The notes under the pieces were generated by a model, which was not told the origin of the DNA, did not search any database, and saw only the letters and a list, made by a program, of their open reading frames with translations. Shown in pieces: positions 1 through 34,173 of a stretch of 35,535 nt of DNA. A program made the translations under genes and the position numbers. This stretch comes from a virus (Duplodnaviria; Heunggongvirae; Uroviricota; Caudoviricetes): IMG/VR virus record IMGVR_UViG_2718218136_000003; one strand, given 5' to 3'. The first letter of the stretch is position 1. The number at the start of each line of letters is the position of its first letter.

Positions 1-900
1 TTAACGCAATAATGGACAATCTGGTGGTAATCGACAACGCAACGCCGCCGGAAGTATTTCAATATGAAAGTTTTGTCCGCTCAACGGTTCGCCATCAAGA
101 TTAAAAGTGATTTCGTGTGGGGCTTGTATATCAAACCACGACGAAGCGCCTTCGATAATATTCGGGTTATCTTCGTCAGATTTTAAGGTTGATACGAGAG
201 CCGGAAGAATTTCATCGCCGGTAAAAATGCGCAGTTGCAGCAAGCCATCGTTAATTAACGCGTTCGGACACAATTGCTGACCGCCACCGGCCTGACGCCC
301 GTTACCAATACCAATGACCAGGGCGTCACCTTGCCAGTGAAAGTTTTCACCGCGGATTTCACAACGGTCCGGTTGCAGAGTATCCATGCGCATTAAGCCA
401 TGAATGATGTAAGAGACGCCACCCAGCGCGGCTTTTAATTTTTCCGGCGTTTCTGTGGTAATACGCGTCCCAAATCCGCCTGTCGCCATATTAATAAAAC
501 AGGTTTGTTTGTTGACCTGCGCCATATCTATCGCAATGGCGTTACCGGCAATTGCCAGTTTCAGCGCCTTATCCAGTGCCTCAGGAATCCCTACACTGGT
601 GGCAAAATCATTGGCGGTTCCTAATGGCAAAATTCCCAGCGCGGGTATGTCATCCCCCTCACACTGAATCAACGCCGTAGAAACTTCATTAATGGTGCCA
701 TCGCCACCACCGGCAATCACCGTTGCGACGCCCAACTTCCGGGCCTCCTCTACATATCGTGCGGCATCGCCTTTCTCCCAGGTGACCCGCACATGGATCG
801 TCATTCCTTCCTCACGCAACAGCATAATTGCTTCGCGCAAGGGTAGATTGTCAGTACTTTTGCCATTAAGAATCAGTAAGCTGGCGGGAAATTCTGCCAT
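1..900 (-). CDS. yegS: Lipid kinase YegS (DAG-kinase catalytic-domain family), complete 299 aa
   Basis: Full-length ORF with ATG at 898-900 and TAA at 1-3 on minus strand; translation carries the GGDGT nucleotide-binding motif typical of DAGK_cat/YegS kinases; synteny with yegR and yegQ. Confidence 0.88.
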
Positions 901-1314
901 GATCGTATGTGCCTTTATGATTGGTCTGTAGATAGTGTAGAGCAGAAAACAAAAGGTGGAGTCAGAACAGGATGAAAGTCGGAGGATAAAAAGTCAGTTC
1001 AAGTATGGAGGATTCAGTGGTTACCACCAGGAGCTTGCAATGGGGACAGCGAATACTAACGGCTGCCACCGATAAATTTCAAAAAAGAGCATATGCCTAA
1101 TATTCAACCAAACAGTGGCATCTTAAATATACTATTCCAAATATATTAAAGCCCCCATGGAGTTACCCTGAAGGGCCTCAATGTCCGTAATTCCTACTTA
1201 TGTAGGAAATGTTGTACAGAACATTTATTATAATCCTATTCAATTATAATAATCATGCCATTATTATATTTAAACACTAGAGAGTGTCGTTGGTATTTAA
1301 TGGGGGAAGGTGAG

Positions 1315-1632
1315 ATGAAAAAGATAGCTGCTATATCATTAATTAGTATTTTTATTATGTCTGGTTGTGCTGTGCATAATGATGAGACAAGTATCGGTAA
1401 ATTTGGTCTTGCATATAAAAGTAATATTCAGCGTAAACTCGATAACCAATACTACACCGAAGCCGAAGCTTCTTTAGCCAGGGGCAGAATATCTGGTGCA
1501 GAAAATATAGTAAAAAATGATGCAGCCCATTTCTGTGTTACTCAGGGCAAAAAAATGCAGATAGTTGACCTGAAGACAGAAGGTGCAGGATTACATGGCG
1601 TCGCTCGTCTGACATTCAAATGTGGAGAGTGA
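1315..1632 (+). CDS. yegR: Small lipoprotein (signal peptide with lipobox-like SGC), 105 aa; positionally equivalent to E. coli yegR
   Basis: ORF 1255-1632 trimmed to internal ATG at 1315 preceded by GGGGGAAGGTGAG Shine-Dalgarno-like sequence; N-terminus MKKIAAISLISIFIMSGCA is a lipoprotein signal. Confidence 0.6.
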   Translation: MKKIAAISLISIFIMSGCAVHNDETSIGKFGLAYKSNIQRKLDNQYYTEAEASLARGRISGAENIVKNDAAHFCVTQGKKMQIVDLKTEGAGLHGVARLTFKCGE

Positions 1633-1694
1633 GAATATTTTTTGGTAAGCGTCAAACATGCGCGTTCTGGTTGTGCTTAGCCGGAACCTGTGCG

Positions 1695-1727
1695 AGCACG
1701 ATGCCGTTACGTGAAAGGCATCGTGCT
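1695..1727 (+). terminator. Perfect 11-bp inverted repeat (AGCACGATGCC / GGCATCGTGCT) with 11-nt loop downstream of yegR; candidate transcription terminator, no clear U-tract
   Basis: Inverted repeat read directly from the sequence about 60 nt after the yegR stop codon. Confidence 0.35.
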
Positions 1728-1789
1728 ATGAAGGGAGATTCTATCGATGTGGTCAATGGAAGACGGTGACCAGGGATAGGGCTTATGCA

Positions 1790-1817
1790 TAAAAAATAAG
1801 CCCGTGTAAGGGAGATT
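1790..1817. repeat. attL core: TAAAAAATAAGCCCGTGTAAGGGAGATT, identical to attR core
   Basis: Exact 28-nt match to 34002-34029; sequences diverge immediately on both sides. Confidence 0.85.
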
Positions 1818-1896
1818 TAGGGTGTCACCAGTAGGGGCTTTCAACGGTACAATGCGGGTTTGAGCGGCATAAATTACCACTGAAAGCCCTTAAACG

Positions 1897-2910
1897 TTAC
1901 TCTACTGTGGACACTGTGTGGACACTCTCGGCTTCAGTACCACCTCTTAGCGGATTAAGAGAAATGGCGTCCTGAAGGTACTCTGGCGCAAAATGAGCGT
2001 AAACCATAGTTTGCTCAATCCGCGTGTGACCTAGTATCCGTTGTAGCGTGATAATACTTCCTCCATTAATCATGAAATGAGTGGCAAAGCTGTGCCTTAG
2101 TGCATGTGTGGCTTGCCCCGTTGGCAAATCCGGTTTTATTGCTTTCATTGTTCGTCTGAAGCGAGGGTAATCAGCATCAGGGAATAAAAAACCTCGTTTG
2201 TTATCCGCGATCATTTTGGCAACAGCCTCTGAGATCGGGACGGTGCGTGGTTTGTTTGTTTTCGTTTTAACAAACGTGACGCGGTTATGGATGATATTTT
2301 CTGCTTTCAAACGAGCTGCTTCTCCCCAACGTGCTCCTGTACTCAGGCAAAGAATCGCAATCTTTTTATTGTCGCCGTCAAGTGCTGCAAGCAGTAAGGC
2401 AATTTCTTCCTGTGTGAGATAGCCTGTTTCTGGTTTTTCCTCCTTAAGCCTCTTTGTCCCTCTGATAGGGTGCTCACCAAAGAATAACTCCGCTTCAATC
2501 AGGGCTGTAAACATGCCGCTAATACATGTTAAATCACGATTGATACTCGAAGGTTTAATACCCTGACTTCTTCGGGTGGCGCAGTACTGGCTGATAAGGG
2601 ATTTCGTGATTTGAAATGCGCATGGGTCATTCGTTATTTTTGTGAAGATTTCAATTTTTCCAAGATTAGATTTCCCATGCTCTTCGTGTTTACCCTTTAA
2701 ATCCCACCAGATCTGTGTCAGTTCCGACAGACGTCGTTTGTCTGTTGGTTTTGATAGCCATTCTTTATTGTGGTGGTTGTACAACGTGTATTTTTCGAAA
2801 GCGACAGCTTCGCTTTTCTTATCAAACTTCCTACGGATGCGTTTTCCGTTACGTCCAGTAGGGCGGATGTCCACTTCATATCGACCATCATCGAGTTTTT
2901 TGATTGCCAT
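1897..2910 (-). CDS. int: P2-type tyrosine integrase, 337 aa
   Basis: Translation has the tyrosine recombinase C-terminal catalytic region (…ATHALRHSFATHFMINGGSIITLQRILGHTRIEQTMVYAHF…); same length as P2 Int; located next to attL and downstream of the C repressor on the same strand. Confidence 0.92.
   Translation of the reverse strand: MAIKKLDDGRYEVDIRPTGRNGKRIRRKFDKKSEAVAFEKYTLYNHHNKEWLSKPTDKRRLSELTQIWWDLKGKHEEHGKSNLGKIEIFTKITNDPCAFQITKSLISQYCATRRSQGIKPSSINRDLTCISGMFTALIEAELFFGEHPIRGTKRLKEEKPETGYLTQEEIALLLAALDGDNKKIAILCLSTGARWGEAARLKAENIIHNRVTFVKTKTNKPRTVPISEAVAKMIADNKRGFLFPDADYPRFRRTMKAIKPDLPTGQATHALRHSFATHFMINGGSIITLQRILGHTRIEQTMVYAHFAPEYLQDAISLNPLRGGTEAESVHTVSTVE
1906..1925. promoter_or_regulatory. 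Two direct TGTGGACAC repeats spaced 11 bp apart in the int-proximal (P') arm; candidate Int arm-type binding sites
   Basis: Direct repeat at 1906-1914 and 1917-1925, overlapping the 3' end of int; related copies TGTGGTCA / TGTGGACG with the same 11-bp spacing occur in the ogr-proximal arm at 33944-33962. Confidence 0.5.
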
Positions 2911-4688: not shown

Positions 4689-4990
4689 TGTCCTGTTCTC
4701 ATTCAGTTGTATTACTGAACAATGCCTTAAAAATCGCCGTTATGAAAAATGGCGATTTGTCTCTTATTCAACTTGGTCTTGATAAAGAAAAACGCGAAAT
4801 AACTGAATCTGTTATCGCGATTTATCAGAACGAATTAAACCTCCTGTCTGATGTGGTCAATTTACTTGTTAAACGCGCTGTATTTCATAAGCAAATCTCC
4901 TCCGTGGATGAACTGACGAAATTAACGACAGAAATCGCCAGCTATTGCGCTGATGAATTTAAGAAGCTGAACGACAAAAGGAGCTGGTAA
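4688..4990 (+). CDS. Early protein (P2 orf81 position), 100 aa
   Basis: ATG at 4688 overlapping the upstream TGA; translationally coupled early-operon ORF. Confidence 0.6.
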   Translation: MSCSHSVVLLNNALKIAVMKNGDLSLIQLGLDKEKREITESVIAIYQNELNLLSDVVNLLVKRAVFHKQISSVDELTKLTTEIASYCADEFKKLNDKRSW

Positions 4991-22978: not shown

Positions 22979-25297
22979 ATGAGCACAAAATTCAAAACCG
23001 TTATCACCACTGCCGGTGCAGCAAAGCTGGCAGCGGCAACCGCGCCGGGAGGGCGGAAGGTCAACATTACCACGATGGCCGTCGGGGATGGCGGTGGTAA
23101 ATTGCCTGTCCCGGATGCCGGACAGACCGGGCTTATCCATGAAGTCTGGCGACATGCGCTGAACAAAATCAGCCAGGACAAACGAAACAGTAATTATATT
23201 ATCGCAGAGCTGGTTATTCCGCCGGAGGTGGGCGGTTTCTGGATGCGTGAGCTTGGCCTGTACGATGATGCGGGAACGTTAATTGCCGTGGCGAACATGG
23301 CCGAAAGTTATAAGCCAGCCCTTGCCGAAGGCTCAGGACGTTCGCAGACCTGCCGCATGGTCATTATCGTCAGCAGTGTGGCCTCAGTGGATCTGACCAT
23401 CGACACCACAACGGTGATGGCGACGCAGGATTACGTTGATGACAAAATTGCAGAGCACGAACAGTCACGACGTCACCCGGACGCCTCGCTGACCGCAAAA
23501 GGTTTTACTCAGTTAAGCAATGCGACCAACAGCACGTCTGAAACACTGGCCGCAACGCCGAAAGCGGTTAAGGCCGCATATGACCTTGCTAACGGGAAAT
23601 ATACCGCACAGGACGCTACCACAGCGCGAAAAGGTCTTGTCCAGCTAAGTAGTGCGACCAACAGCATGTCTGAAACGCTCGCCGCAACACCAAAAGCGGT
23701 TAAGGCAGCGTATGACCTTGCTAACGGGAAATACACTGCACAGGACGCCACCACAGCGCGAAAAGGTCTTGTCCAGCTCAGTAGCGTCACCAACAGCGAT
23801 TCTGAAACGCTTGCGGCAACGCCAAAGGCGGTTAAGACAGCGTATGACCTTGCTAACGGGAAATACACTGCACAGGATGCCACCACCGCGCGAAAAGGTC
23901 TTGTCCAGCTCAGTAGCGCCACCAACAGCGATTCTGAAACGCTGGCTGCAACATCAAAAGCGGTGAAGTCTGCCTATGACAATGCTGAAAAACGTCTTCA
24001 GAAAGATCAGAACGGTGCGGATATTCCGGGAAAGGATACCTTCACGAAAAATATCGGTGCCTGTCGTGCTTATAGCGGCGCTTTGAGCACTGAAGCCGGA
24101 AACTGGACAACCGCTCAGTTTATTGAATGGCTGGATTCCCGTGGTGCATTTAATCATCCGTACTGGATGTGCAAAGGCTCCTGGTCATATGCAAATAACA
24201 AAATCATTACGGATACCGGATGTGGTGATATCCACCTGGCTGGTTGTGTCGTCGAGGTCATGGGAACTAAATCTGCAATCACTATCCGAGTGACCACGCC
24301 GACAACATCAAGCGGTGGCGGTACAACCAGCGCGCAATTCACTTACATAAATCATGGGGACGGCTACTCCCCCGGCTGGCGTCGTGACTGGAATCGTCAG
24401 GGCGACGCAATGACCGGAACGATTAATCAGGATGGCGGAAGCCAGAATGCCTATATGTCTACGGCCTTATGTTCAGGCACCAGAGGCGGCAAAAAATATC
24501 TCAGAAAGTTTCGTGGTGGAGAAGGAGACACTATCTGGCATGAAACAGTACAGGGCGGGGTAGTTCGCTGGGCGACTGGTAATACTGATGCTCAGGAAGA
24601 ATTATCACTCAGCTCCGCTTATGGTCTCCGTTCAAGAGGTGAGATTACATCAAGCAGTGCTAATGGTCTGCGCATTGCTTATGGCAATTATGGATTCTTT
24701 ATCAGGAATGATGGCAGCAGCACTTATTTTATGTTGACTAAATCAGGTGACAGATTAGGCACTTATAATAATTTAAGACCACTGATTATAAATGATGCCA
24801 CGGGTGCTGTATCAATGGGGCATGGCCTGAGTGTTACAGGTGATATTGTCTCAAGTACCAAAGTACGTGCCGGTAGCGGGAAAAAGTTCACGGTCAGCAG
24901 CAGCAATACATCCACGAAGGAAGCCGCATTCAATTTGTGGGGAAACTCAAGTCGTCCTGTGGTGGCTGAATTAGGTGATGATGCAGGCTGGCATTTTTAC
25001 AGTCAGAGAAATACAGATAACAGCATCACTTTTGCTGTTAACGGGCAGGTATCACCATCTAACTATGGAAACTTTGATTCACGCTATGTCCGGGATATCC
25101 GGCTTGGTGGTGCTGCCACATACAAACCTGCGAACAATGGTATGACATGGACACATCAGGCACCGTCCGGGTGTGTATATTCCGGCATTATTGTTCAGGA
25201 TACCGGCTCAAACTCTGCCGATAACATTGGTGGCGTATATTACAGACCGGTGCAGAAATACATTAACGGGACTTGGTATAACGTGGCGCAGGTATAA
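22979..25297 (+). CDS. H: Tail fibre protein H, 772 aa, with an internal tandem repeat array
   Basis: Long ORF after the baseplate genes; conserved N-terminus; central 44-aa repeats; Gly/Ser-rich C-terminal region. Confidence 0.88.
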   Translation: MSTKFKTVITTAGAAKLAAATAPGGRKVNITTMAVGDGGGKLPVPDAGQTGLIHEVWRHALNKISQDKRNSNYIIAELVIPPEVGGFWMRELGLYDDAGTLIAVANMAESYKPALAEGSGRSQTCRMVIIVSSVASVDLTIDTTTVMATQDYVDDKIAEHEQSRRHPDASLTAKGFTQLSNATNSTSETLAATPKAVKAAYDLANGKYTAQDATTARKGLVQLSSATNSMSETLAATPKAVKAAYDLANGKYTAQDATTARKGLVQLSSVTNSDSETLAATPKAVKTAYDLANGKYTAQDATTARKGLVQLSSATNSDSETLAATSKAVKSAYDNAEKRLQKDQNGADIPGKDTFTKNIGACRAYSGALSTEAGNWTTAQFIEWLDSRGAFNHPYWMCKGSWSYANNKIITDTGCGDIHLAGCVVEVMGTKSAITIRVTTPTTSSGGGTTSAQFTYINHGDGYSPGWRRDWNRQGDAMTGTINQDGGSQNAYMSTALCSGTRGGKKYLRKFRGGEGDTIWHETVQGGVVRWATGNTDAQEELSLSSAYGLRSRGEITSSSANGLRIAYGNYGFFIRNDGSSTYFMLTKSGDRLGTYNNLRPLIINDATGAVSMGHGLSVTGDIVSSTKVRAGSGKKFTVSSSNTSTKEAAFNLWGNSSRPVVAELGDDAGWHFYSQRNTDNSITFAVNGQVSPSNYGNFDSRYVRDIRLGGAATYKPANNGMTWTHQAPSGCVYSGIIVQDTGSNSADNIGGVYYRPVQKYINGTWYNVAQV
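23498..23980 (+). repeat. About 3.7 tandem copies of a 132-bp (44-codon) in-frame repeat inside H (KGLVQLSSATNSxSETLAATPKAVKAAYDLANGKYTAQDATTAR)
   Basis: Unit starts at 23498, 23630, 23762 and 23894; near-identical at nucleotide level; also produces mirror ORFs on the opposite strand. Confidence 0.9.
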
Positions 25298-33682: not shown

Positions 33683-33901
33683 ATGTTTCATTGTCCTTTA
33701 TGCCAGCATGCCGCACATGCGCGTACAAGCCGCTATATCACTGACACGACAAAAGAGCGTTATCACCAGTGCCAGAACGTGAATTGCAGCGCCACGTTCA
33801 TCACCTATGAGTCGGTACAGCGATACATCGTGAAGCCGGGAGAAGTCCACGCCGTAAGGCCGCACCCGTTGCCGTCAGGGCAGCAAATTATGTGGATGTA
33901 A
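33683..33901 (+). CDS. ogr: Late-gene transcriptional activator Ogr (zinc finger), 72 aa
   Basis: ORF 33608-33901 trimmed to MFHCPLCQHAAHARTSRYITDTTKERYHQCQNVNCSATF…, the C4 zinc-finger protein of P2 as I recall it; last gene before attR. Confidence 0.9.
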   Translation: MFHCPLCQHAAHARTSRYITDTTKERYHQCQNVNCSATFITYESVQRYIVKPGEVHAVRPHPLPSGQQIMWM

Positions 33902-33911
33902 TTACAAACAG

Positions 33912-33938
33912 GAAGCCCCTCAGTCGAGGGGCTTTTTT
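33912..33938 (+). terminator. Rho-independent terminator after ogr (AAGCCCCTC-loop-GAGGGGCTT followed by TTTTTT)
   Basis: 9-bp GC-rich stem with a T-run immediately downstream of the ogr stop. Confidence 0.8.
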
Positions 33939-34001
33939 GTCGATGTGGTCAATGTGTGGACGTGACCAGAAATAAATCCTTTTATTTCATTGTATTACGC
34001 G

Positions 34002-34029
34002 TAAAAAATAAGCCCGTGTAAGGGAGATT
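34002..34029. repeat. attR core: TAAAAAATAAGCCCGTGTAAGGGAGATT, identical to attL core
   Basis: Exact 28-nt match to 1790-1817; overlaps the 3' terminator of cyaR. Confidence 0.85.
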
Positions 34030-34089
34030 ACACAGGCTAAGGAGGTGGTTCCTGGTACAGCTAGCATTTTATGGGTTATGTTTTTCAGC
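34003..34089 (-). ncRNA. cyaR: CyaR (RyeE) Hfq-dependent sRNA, about 87 nt
   Basis: Minus-strand sequence GCTGAAAAACATAACCCATAAAATGCTAGCTGTACCAGGAACCACCTCCTTAGCCTGTGTAATCTCCCTTACACGGGCTTATTTTTT matches CyaR as I recall it; ends in a terminator hairpin plus U-tract; lies between ogr and yegQ as in E. coli. Confidence 0.8.
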
Positions 34090-34173
34090 GAAACGGATGA
34101 TAACCTTAATAAATGCAGCTGTATGTGATCGGTTTCTAAGAATTTTCCATCCGGGAAAAATAATCGAAATTAA

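Follow-up and report, generated by a model that had tools for sequence, protein, structure and literature searches.

What is the origin of the DNA that separates yegR from the prophage at the 3' end of the small regulatory RNA gene cyaR in Escherichia coli? The question is raised by a stretch of 35,535 nucleotides, IMG/VR record IMGVR_UViG_2718218136_000003 (hereafter the window, meaning the whole stretch at its full length), which holds a P2-type prophage inserted at the 3' end of cyaR. P2 classically integrates at this place, known as locI. Between yegR and the left attachment site (attL) core of the prophage lies a flank of 158 bp (1633-1790), followed by the 27-bp core itself (AAAAAATAAGCCCGTGTAAGGGAGATT, 1791-1817, plus strand). 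A preliminary description of the window had noted that 1745-1774 resembles the phage arm just after ogr at 33941-33970, and had suggested that the prophage inserted beside the decayed end of an earlier P2-like element. The left flank from 1744 to 1790 is a decayed copy of a whole P2-type P arm. We consider it likely that this flank and the islet to its left form a fossil P2-like prophage that is present throughout E. coli, and that the right attachment site (attR) of the fossil is now an ordinary bacterial attachment site (attB).

The resemblance to the arm beyond ogr begins with the 15-mer TCGATGTGGTCAATG, which is shared at 15 of 15 positions between 1744-1758 and 33940-33954, and continues with GTGACCAG, which is shared in register between 1766-1773 and 33962-33969. 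A repeat search returned the flank and the arm as a pair (D3, 1730-1778 against 33926-33974, 71% identity) beside the pair of cores (D10), and D10 reached 8 bp past the left end of the 27-bp core (TTATGCAT against TTACGCGT). Local alignment of the flank (1633-1790) with the P arm (33903-34002) gave a score of 38. Dinucleotide shuffles averaged 14.8 and peaked at 27; not one of 2000 reached 38, and the resemblance that had been noticed by eye is thus confirmed. That a host flank should match a phage arm by chance has a practically negligible probability. The flank does share many exact matches of 10-13 nt with the 32-kb prophage, but besides the result of the shuffles, the match is collinear with the arm, has the same orientation and adjoins the core, and independent similarity is found both in the core-proximal tail and at the other end of the islet.

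The relic in the window (1744-1790, plus strand) is a short allele, collinear with the arm and adjoining the core. Its first repeat, TGTGGTCA, is intact at 1748-1755, and the second is degenerate (GAAGACGG, 1759-1766). The relic keeps GTGACCAG at 1766-1773, the region of the integration host factor (IHF) site is mostly deleted, and TTATGCAT abuts the core. About a fifth of genomes carry a long allele with 12 additional bp (the type of locus L086). From the first integrase (Int) repeat to the core, the long allele is identical to the P arm in 44 of 64 columns. Taken by itself, the core-proximal tail of this allele, which does not rely on the 15-mer, has a score that 12 of 5000 shuffles reached (p~0.002). 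A blastn-short comparison of the islet with the resident prophage found no similarity beyond the arm.

The opposite end of the islet carries traces of the other attachment site. At 988-1014 (plus strand) lies a decayed left core, AAAAAGTCAGTTCAAGTATGGAGGATT, with 18 gapless matches out of 27, a level attained at only one further place outside the cores when both strands of the window are considered; it would be the attL core of the fossil. It is located 88 bp from the yegS ATG, and outgroups hold the real core mostly at 75-118 bp. Directly after it, 1015-1046 (plus strand) resembles the start of a P2-type P' arm, being identical to 1818-1850 in 22 of 33 columns of an anchored global alignment. 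A single shuffle out of 5000 and a single genomic segment out of 1069 attained the score of the P' arm start, and none of either attained that of core and P' arm jointly (0/5000 and 0/1069). The preliminary description had therefore understated the extent of the relic, which appears to be the right end of a fossil of ~800 bp (988-1817) with a decayed attL at its left.

To place the islet among related loci, we examined yegQ loci from 80 species of other Enterobacteriaceae, 77 of them with a recognisable cyaR terminator. The start of yegS is no more than 250 bp from the core or cyaR terminator in 47 of the 77 species, and in 44 of these the distance is 75-118 bp (86 bp between yegS and the core in Escherichia sp. 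E1V33). Neither yegR nor the relic was found in the 47 short-interval loci. A P2-type double repeat stands 40-41 bp from the core in 8 species, which indicates prophages or remnants, and the remaining loci contain other insertions. E. coli carries an insertion of ~800 bp (islet 988-1790, containing yegR) that starts where the outgroup core starts. Partial left copies of the core occur at the same place in other species with insertions, with 23/27 matches in L060 and L071, 19/27 in L065 and 18/27 in L031. The E. coli islet has three of the features expected of an att-bounded remnant, namely a P arm on the attR side, a second core with the other arm opposite, and a segment that is absent at related loci; a fourth, phage genes inside it, was looked for and not found.

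With a decayed attL at one end, and a decayed P arm and live core at the other, the islet looks like an almost fully deleted P2-like prophage. We propose that such a prophage would have integrated into the same core before the sampled E. coli lineages diverged, and would then have been almost wholly deleted to leave the ~800-bp islet (988-1817). What remains would be the decayed attL core, ~32 nt of decayed P' arm, ~700 bp with yegR, the decayed P arm and the intact core. The similar decay of the three decayed parts (67%, 67-75% and 69% identity) is in keeping with a single old event, and we infer that both islet ends come from one element. The intact right core most likely persists as part of the functional cyaR terminator. 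The attR of the fossil would serve as an ordinary attB, and later P2-type phages, among them the window prophage and PR-X of K-12, would have inserted there.

Several points weigh against this proposal. No recognisable phage gene was found in the islet, and when 986-1790 and YegR were compared with a phage collection (blastn, tblastn) only records that contain host flank were returned. To the left of the arm, toward the ogr terminator and ogr, similarity is marginal in the nearest 15 nt (67 of 3000 shuffles reach its score) and nothing was found beyond. The unoccupied Escherichia outgroup is a single locus, L005, and E. albertii holds a different remnant at the site. Two separate old events, and not one, could lie behind the P arm relic and the attL end, and yegR may be a later arrival in the remnant.

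The similarity between flank and arm could also be read in the reverse direction, with P2 having captured its P arm from the E. coli flank through an aberrant excision that took the bacterial (B) arm along. The geometry permits it, as the excised B arm would fall between ogr and the core, which is the place of the P arm. We nevertheless regard such a capture as very improbable. In Yersinia phage vB_YpM_46 this P arm stands beside another core, and in eight other species it adjoins cyaR as part of a P2-like prophage or remnant; for this reason the arm is taken to be intrinsic to the phage and the host copy to be derived. Derivation from the phage arm is likewise argued by the host copy being confined to E. 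coli and lacking elements that Int and IHF need, namely the second repeat and the greater part of the IHF region. The repeat recognised by Int is common to both phage arms, and a decayed P' arm is found at the opposite end of the islet.

We determined how widely the relic is distributed in a sample of 5426 complete E. coli genomes. A query consisting of yegR and the flank had a match of at least 80% coverage in 5388 of them, and a 98-bp query centred on the relic matched in 5288. The earlier P2-like element that had been suggested beside the prophage is thus real as a decayed P arm but, with at least 5288 of the 5426 genomes carrying it, neither local nor strain-specific. At a prophage-free site (L003), the exact flank of the window is joined straight to cyaR. 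The preliminary description had named, as a finding that would refute it, a flank that is native host sequence in all prophage-free strains and has no relation to any phage arm. Half of this holds, as the flank is native where no prophage is present and is related to a phage arm. In 783 genomes the attL junction equals that of the window, and the whole arrangement is therefore common.

The relic had also been regarded as consistent with the ogrK/yegZ remnant of K-12, and comparison with the K-12 region contradicts this. In strain 9FA, which has a K-12-type chromosome (L002), the same flank is followed by a core that is truncated after CCCGTGTA and fused to D' (yegZ), and to the right of D' come ogrK, a complete P arm, the core and then cyaR. 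L002 thus carries two distinct elements, the flank relic and, to its right, PR-X, and the equation of the relic with the ogrK/yegZ remnant was rejected. Because the flank relic lies left of it in this chromosome, PR-X is a separate and later insertion. The MG1655 annotation limits 'cryptic prophage PR-X' to the interval from the core to yegZ. Both are P2-like remnants at the same core that kept the attR side and were deleted from the attL side. They differ in that PR-X is young (~97% identical to the window prophage), retains phage genes and occurs in some strains only, whereas the flank fossil is old (~67-75% identity), has no phage gene and is species-wide. A further deletion was seen in strain FDAARGOS_1077 (L084 2590-2615), where most of yegR and part of the flank are missing between two copies of TCTGGTTGTGCT, located in the window at 1362-1373 and 1665-1676.

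PR-X shows that deletions beginning inside the attL core do occur at this site, which bears on a 10-mer to the left of the relic. AAGGGAGATT, the last 10 nt of the core, recurs at 1731-1740 (plus strand), as had been noticed earlier, and its origin is ambiguous. In a nested version of the earlier suggestion, a second P2-like prophage would have entered the core beside an already existing yegR islet and then been deleted from just past its attL core to just short of its P arm, leaving AAGGGAGATT as a trace of the former and 1744-1790 as the latter; we regard this course of events as doubtful. The 10-mer is identical to the right end of the core at 10 of 10 positions and is 4 bp from the start of the arm relic, and by a post hoc estimate the chance of any 10-mer being common to the core and the 158-nt flank is ~0.005. 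In addition, 1714-1740 is the second-best core-like 27-mer of the flank (15/27). However, ~70 positions in the window reach 15/27 or more by chance, and the other 17 positions of the core match at 5 of 17 while the adjoining arm keeps ~69-80%, which is unlike decay of equal age. K-12 has AAGGAGGATT in place of AAGGGAGATT, and in an unconstrained search against the prophage the 10-mer had an E-value of 20, weak on its own. An in-register alternative, in which the 10-mer is aligned to the tail of the ogr terminator (GAAGGGAGATTCTAT against GAGGGGCTTTTTTGT, 9/15; 67 of 3000 shuffles reach the score), is equally good. Finally, a bona fide decayed attL, with core and P' arm, is already present at 988-1046. 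The recurrence itself stands; its reading as a core remnant is not established.

The sole gene in the islet is yegR (1315-1632, plus strand), which encodes a 105-aa lipoprotein (PF27694). Almost all of its homologues are from E. coli or Shigella. Divergent YegR homologues are found at unrelated loci or flanked by insertion sequences, and in one context the gene is paired with another lipoprotein gene. Two NCBI/ENA hits that had looked 'divergent' proved to be this same yegS-yegR-yegQ locus in assemblies with frameshifts. We infer that the yegR cassette arrived with the fossil phage. YegR has a strong hit in the PHROG database (phrog_21109), a family that was probably caused by host-flank contamination of phage records, and the host-flank-containing phage records that we encountered were ON470606.1 (vB_EcoM-720R8) and AY639599.1 ('Phage TP'). 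A hit of phage 186 to the islet or YegR (E=3) was not significant and was discarded. Only in B2/ST131 strains do 170 extra bp follow the yegR stop codon (L085 1883-2053; insertion point in the window ~1637). They are what is left of the 5' part of a second lipoprotein gene, which in a different enterobacterial setting stands after a gene resembling yegR (L093; 73% identity, 449 bp), and for this reason the B2 form is probably ancestral and the form in the window a deletion.

Islets at the cyaR 3' end of other Enterobacteriaceae (L065, L076, L060, L071 and E. albertii, L006), among them decayed P2-like remnants, resemble that of E. coli in being inserted between yegS and cyaR and in having partial left core copies ~80 bp from yegS, some of them also with a P-type arm 40-41 bp from the core. 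They differ in contents and age, the E. albertii remnant containing putative cdt genes, and the E. coli fossil is smaller than they are and fixed in its species. In E. albertii NBRC 107761 (L006 4533-7100), a P-arm-like relic by cyaR has kept only the second repeat (GTGGACG...CAGAAATAAA), and the open reading frames after it resemble CdtA and CdtB, as judged by eye from the translations. This suggests that the cdt genes of E. albertii are within a P2-like remnant at the same att site. A different islet of ~630 bp between cyaR and yegS is shared by several Enterobacter species (L004, L063, L069, L073, L077 and L079). One of these loci, L004, is labelled Enterobacter hormaechei B17-3; its yegQ equals the E. 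coli protein at 100% identity and its core is of the E. coli type, which is odd for the genus.

A separate proposal of the preliminary description was that TGTGGACA-type repeats, spaced 11 bp apart on both arms, are candidate arm-type sites of Int. The strings are located where they had been reported, TGTGGACAC at 1906-1914 and 1917-1925 within the int coding sequence, and TGTGGTCA at 33944-33951 with TGTGGACG at 33955-33962. The double-repeat pattern TGTGGWCNNNNTGTGGAC, with one mismatch or fewer, occurs exactly twice in the window (at 1906 and 33944), where 0.04 occurrences are expected. The N-terminal domain of P2 Int binds two direct repeats on each arm, and its core-binding domain binds the core. 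As the P2 reference we used GenBank record AF063097, in which 'Int, P arm' and 'Int, P' arm' are entered as protein_bind features, and we transferred its sites by their offset from the core. The record annotates the core at 24356-24383 and places the Int P' arm site (24470-24496) inside the int 3' end. The P' arm site of the window (1905-1931, plus strand), with its two direct TGTGGACAC repeats inside the last int codons, is identical in sequence to the annotated P2 site, and the P arm site (TGTGGTCA, TGTGGACG; 33940-33967, plus strand) is identical to P2 24293-24320. At least two direct repeats of the published Int arm consensus tgTGGaCa (Nilsson et al. 2011, PMC3448106) lie on each side of the core, at 1906-1925 and 33944-33962. 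Judged by this coincidence with the AF063097 Int features and the consensus, P2 integrase has its arm-type binding sites in these TGTGGACA-type repeats, already known and annotated, and the proposal was correct.

All Int, IHF and Cox sites named here were assigned by identity to annotated P2 sites. A putative Cox-binding region on the P' side (1834-1907, plus strand) was transferred by position from the P2 protein_bind Cox feature at 24399-24472, and a putative IHF site on the P arm (33971-34004, plus strand) from 24324-24357. On the P' side one position differs from P2 up to window 1951, beyond the Cox region, and the IHF region has a few differences from P2 near the core and is identical to the arm of K-12 PR-X. 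Integration puts the P' arm at attL, overlapping the int end, and the P arm at attR. Identical cores stand at both junctions and equal the core of the phage attachment site (attP), and a P2-type integrase gene adjoins attL, as at a P2-type attachment site served by a heterobivalent tyrosine integrase. The window is like the P2 attP, attL and attR in its 27-bp core, in Int arm sites identical to those of P2 with 11-bp-spaced direct repeats on both arms, in the position of the P' site within the int 3' end, in an Int identical at 336 of 337 residues, and in the layout of ogr terminator, P arm, IHF site and core. It differs in a few substitutions in the core-proximal IHF region, where it equals the PR-X arm, and in nothing else. 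The P2 att sites were reportedly described by Yu and Haggard-Ljungquist in 1993. GATGTGGTCAAT, which is 12 nt out of the 15 that make up the first P-arm repeat region, recurs on the same strand at 4850-4861 in the prophage early region, and an E-value of 1.3 suggests that this copy is due to chance.

Does the fossil still have a role? It is most likely without present function, and the fossil arm seems to have no part in recombination now. Because it has one repeat, an altered and variable spacing and no IHF site, it should not assemble Int in the way an arm does. Downstream of yegR lies a hairpin with a perfect 11-bp stem (AGCACGATGCC...GGCATCGTGCT, 1695-1727, plus strand), and the stem is kept in K-12 and ST131 variants. 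Hairpin and folded flank RNA may serve yegR. We considered whether the flank is a selected host element, either through the retained TGTGGTCA binding Int (attB preference or excision) or through hairpins that serve the yegR 3' untranslated region or terminator, or cyaR read-through, and we judge this unlikely. Among the four E. coli variants read, TCGATGTGGTCAATGGAAGACGGT does not change and positions next to it do, but diversity within the species is too low for four sequences to reveal selection. The flank RNA (1625-1830) folds unusually well (z=-3.98), and the stem change in ST131 is compatible with G-U pairing in the yegR sense; a scan of the flank for intrinsic terminators found none. The spacing to the core is 25 or 37 bp and varies between alleles, against 40-41 bp in attP, and the second repeat, which is needed for paired Int binding, is gone. 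It is quite unlikely that three things hold together, namely that the P2 attB is the attR of the fossil, that yegR is phage cargo, and that Int is still bound by the surviving repeat at 1748-1755, with an effect on site preference or on excision from attL. A second hairpin, with an 8-bp stem (GGGCTTAT-gcataaaaa-ATAAGCCC, 1777-1801), includes the left part of the core; it is found just downstream of the cyaR terminator in empty sites and is separated from cyaR in lysogens.

The remainder of the window is organised as follows. To the left of the islet is yegS (1-900, minus strand). After the attL core, the P2-type prophage runs from int to ogr, followed by the P arm, the attR core, cyaR and yegQ. 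The P2 integrase gene int (1897-2910, minus strand) encodes 337 aa, and the late-gene activator ogr (33683-33901, plus strand) is the final gene ahead of attR. The rho-independent terminator of ogr and the F operon lies at 33912-33935 (plus strand; P2 annotation 24265-24288). The attR core (34003-34029, plus strand) doubles as the 3' half of the cyaR terminator, and the two 27-bp cores have one and the same sequence, which is also that of the P2 attP core (24356-24382). cyaR itself (34006-34091, minus strand) was recovered at full length (Rfam RF00112, 100.7 bits), and the Rfam scan gave no other family at threshold. The cyaR RNA gene is listed among the P2 prophage sites of E. coli W, B and K-12 (PMC3032704, Table 2). 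Within the prophage's late region (23497-23986) there are three overlapping direct repeat copies with a period of 132 bp and 81-87% identity.

The att core is polymorphic inside the cyaR terminator (window 1803-1805 and 34015-34017). The window and K-12 have the variant GCCCGTG (27/27 to P2), ST131 has GCCTGTG (26/27), and Escherichia sp. E1V33 (L005) and E. albertii (L006) have GCCTGCG (25/27). Most genera have GCCCGCG or GCCTGCG, and Kluyvera matches P2 exactly. It is possible that the host terminator has been rewritten by phage integration and excision.

A search of full-text literature found no statement on such a fossil beside cyaR; the older papers on the site (Barreiro & Haggard-Ljungquist 1992, Yu & Haggard-Ljungquist 1993) were outside that search. 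The practical effect is small, in that programs that call prophage boundaries may misplace attL and some phage records include yegR as phage DNA. The repeats, being annotated P2 Int arm sites, need no further attention. The interval between yegR and cyaR has been treated as native host DNA, with MG1655 marking only ogrK-yegZ as prophage, and it bears the signatures of both ends of a much older P2-type prophage. An origin is thereby offered for the orphan gene yegR. More generally, the 3' end of a small-RNA gene can serve several phages in succession, and an old attR can decay back to a working attB.

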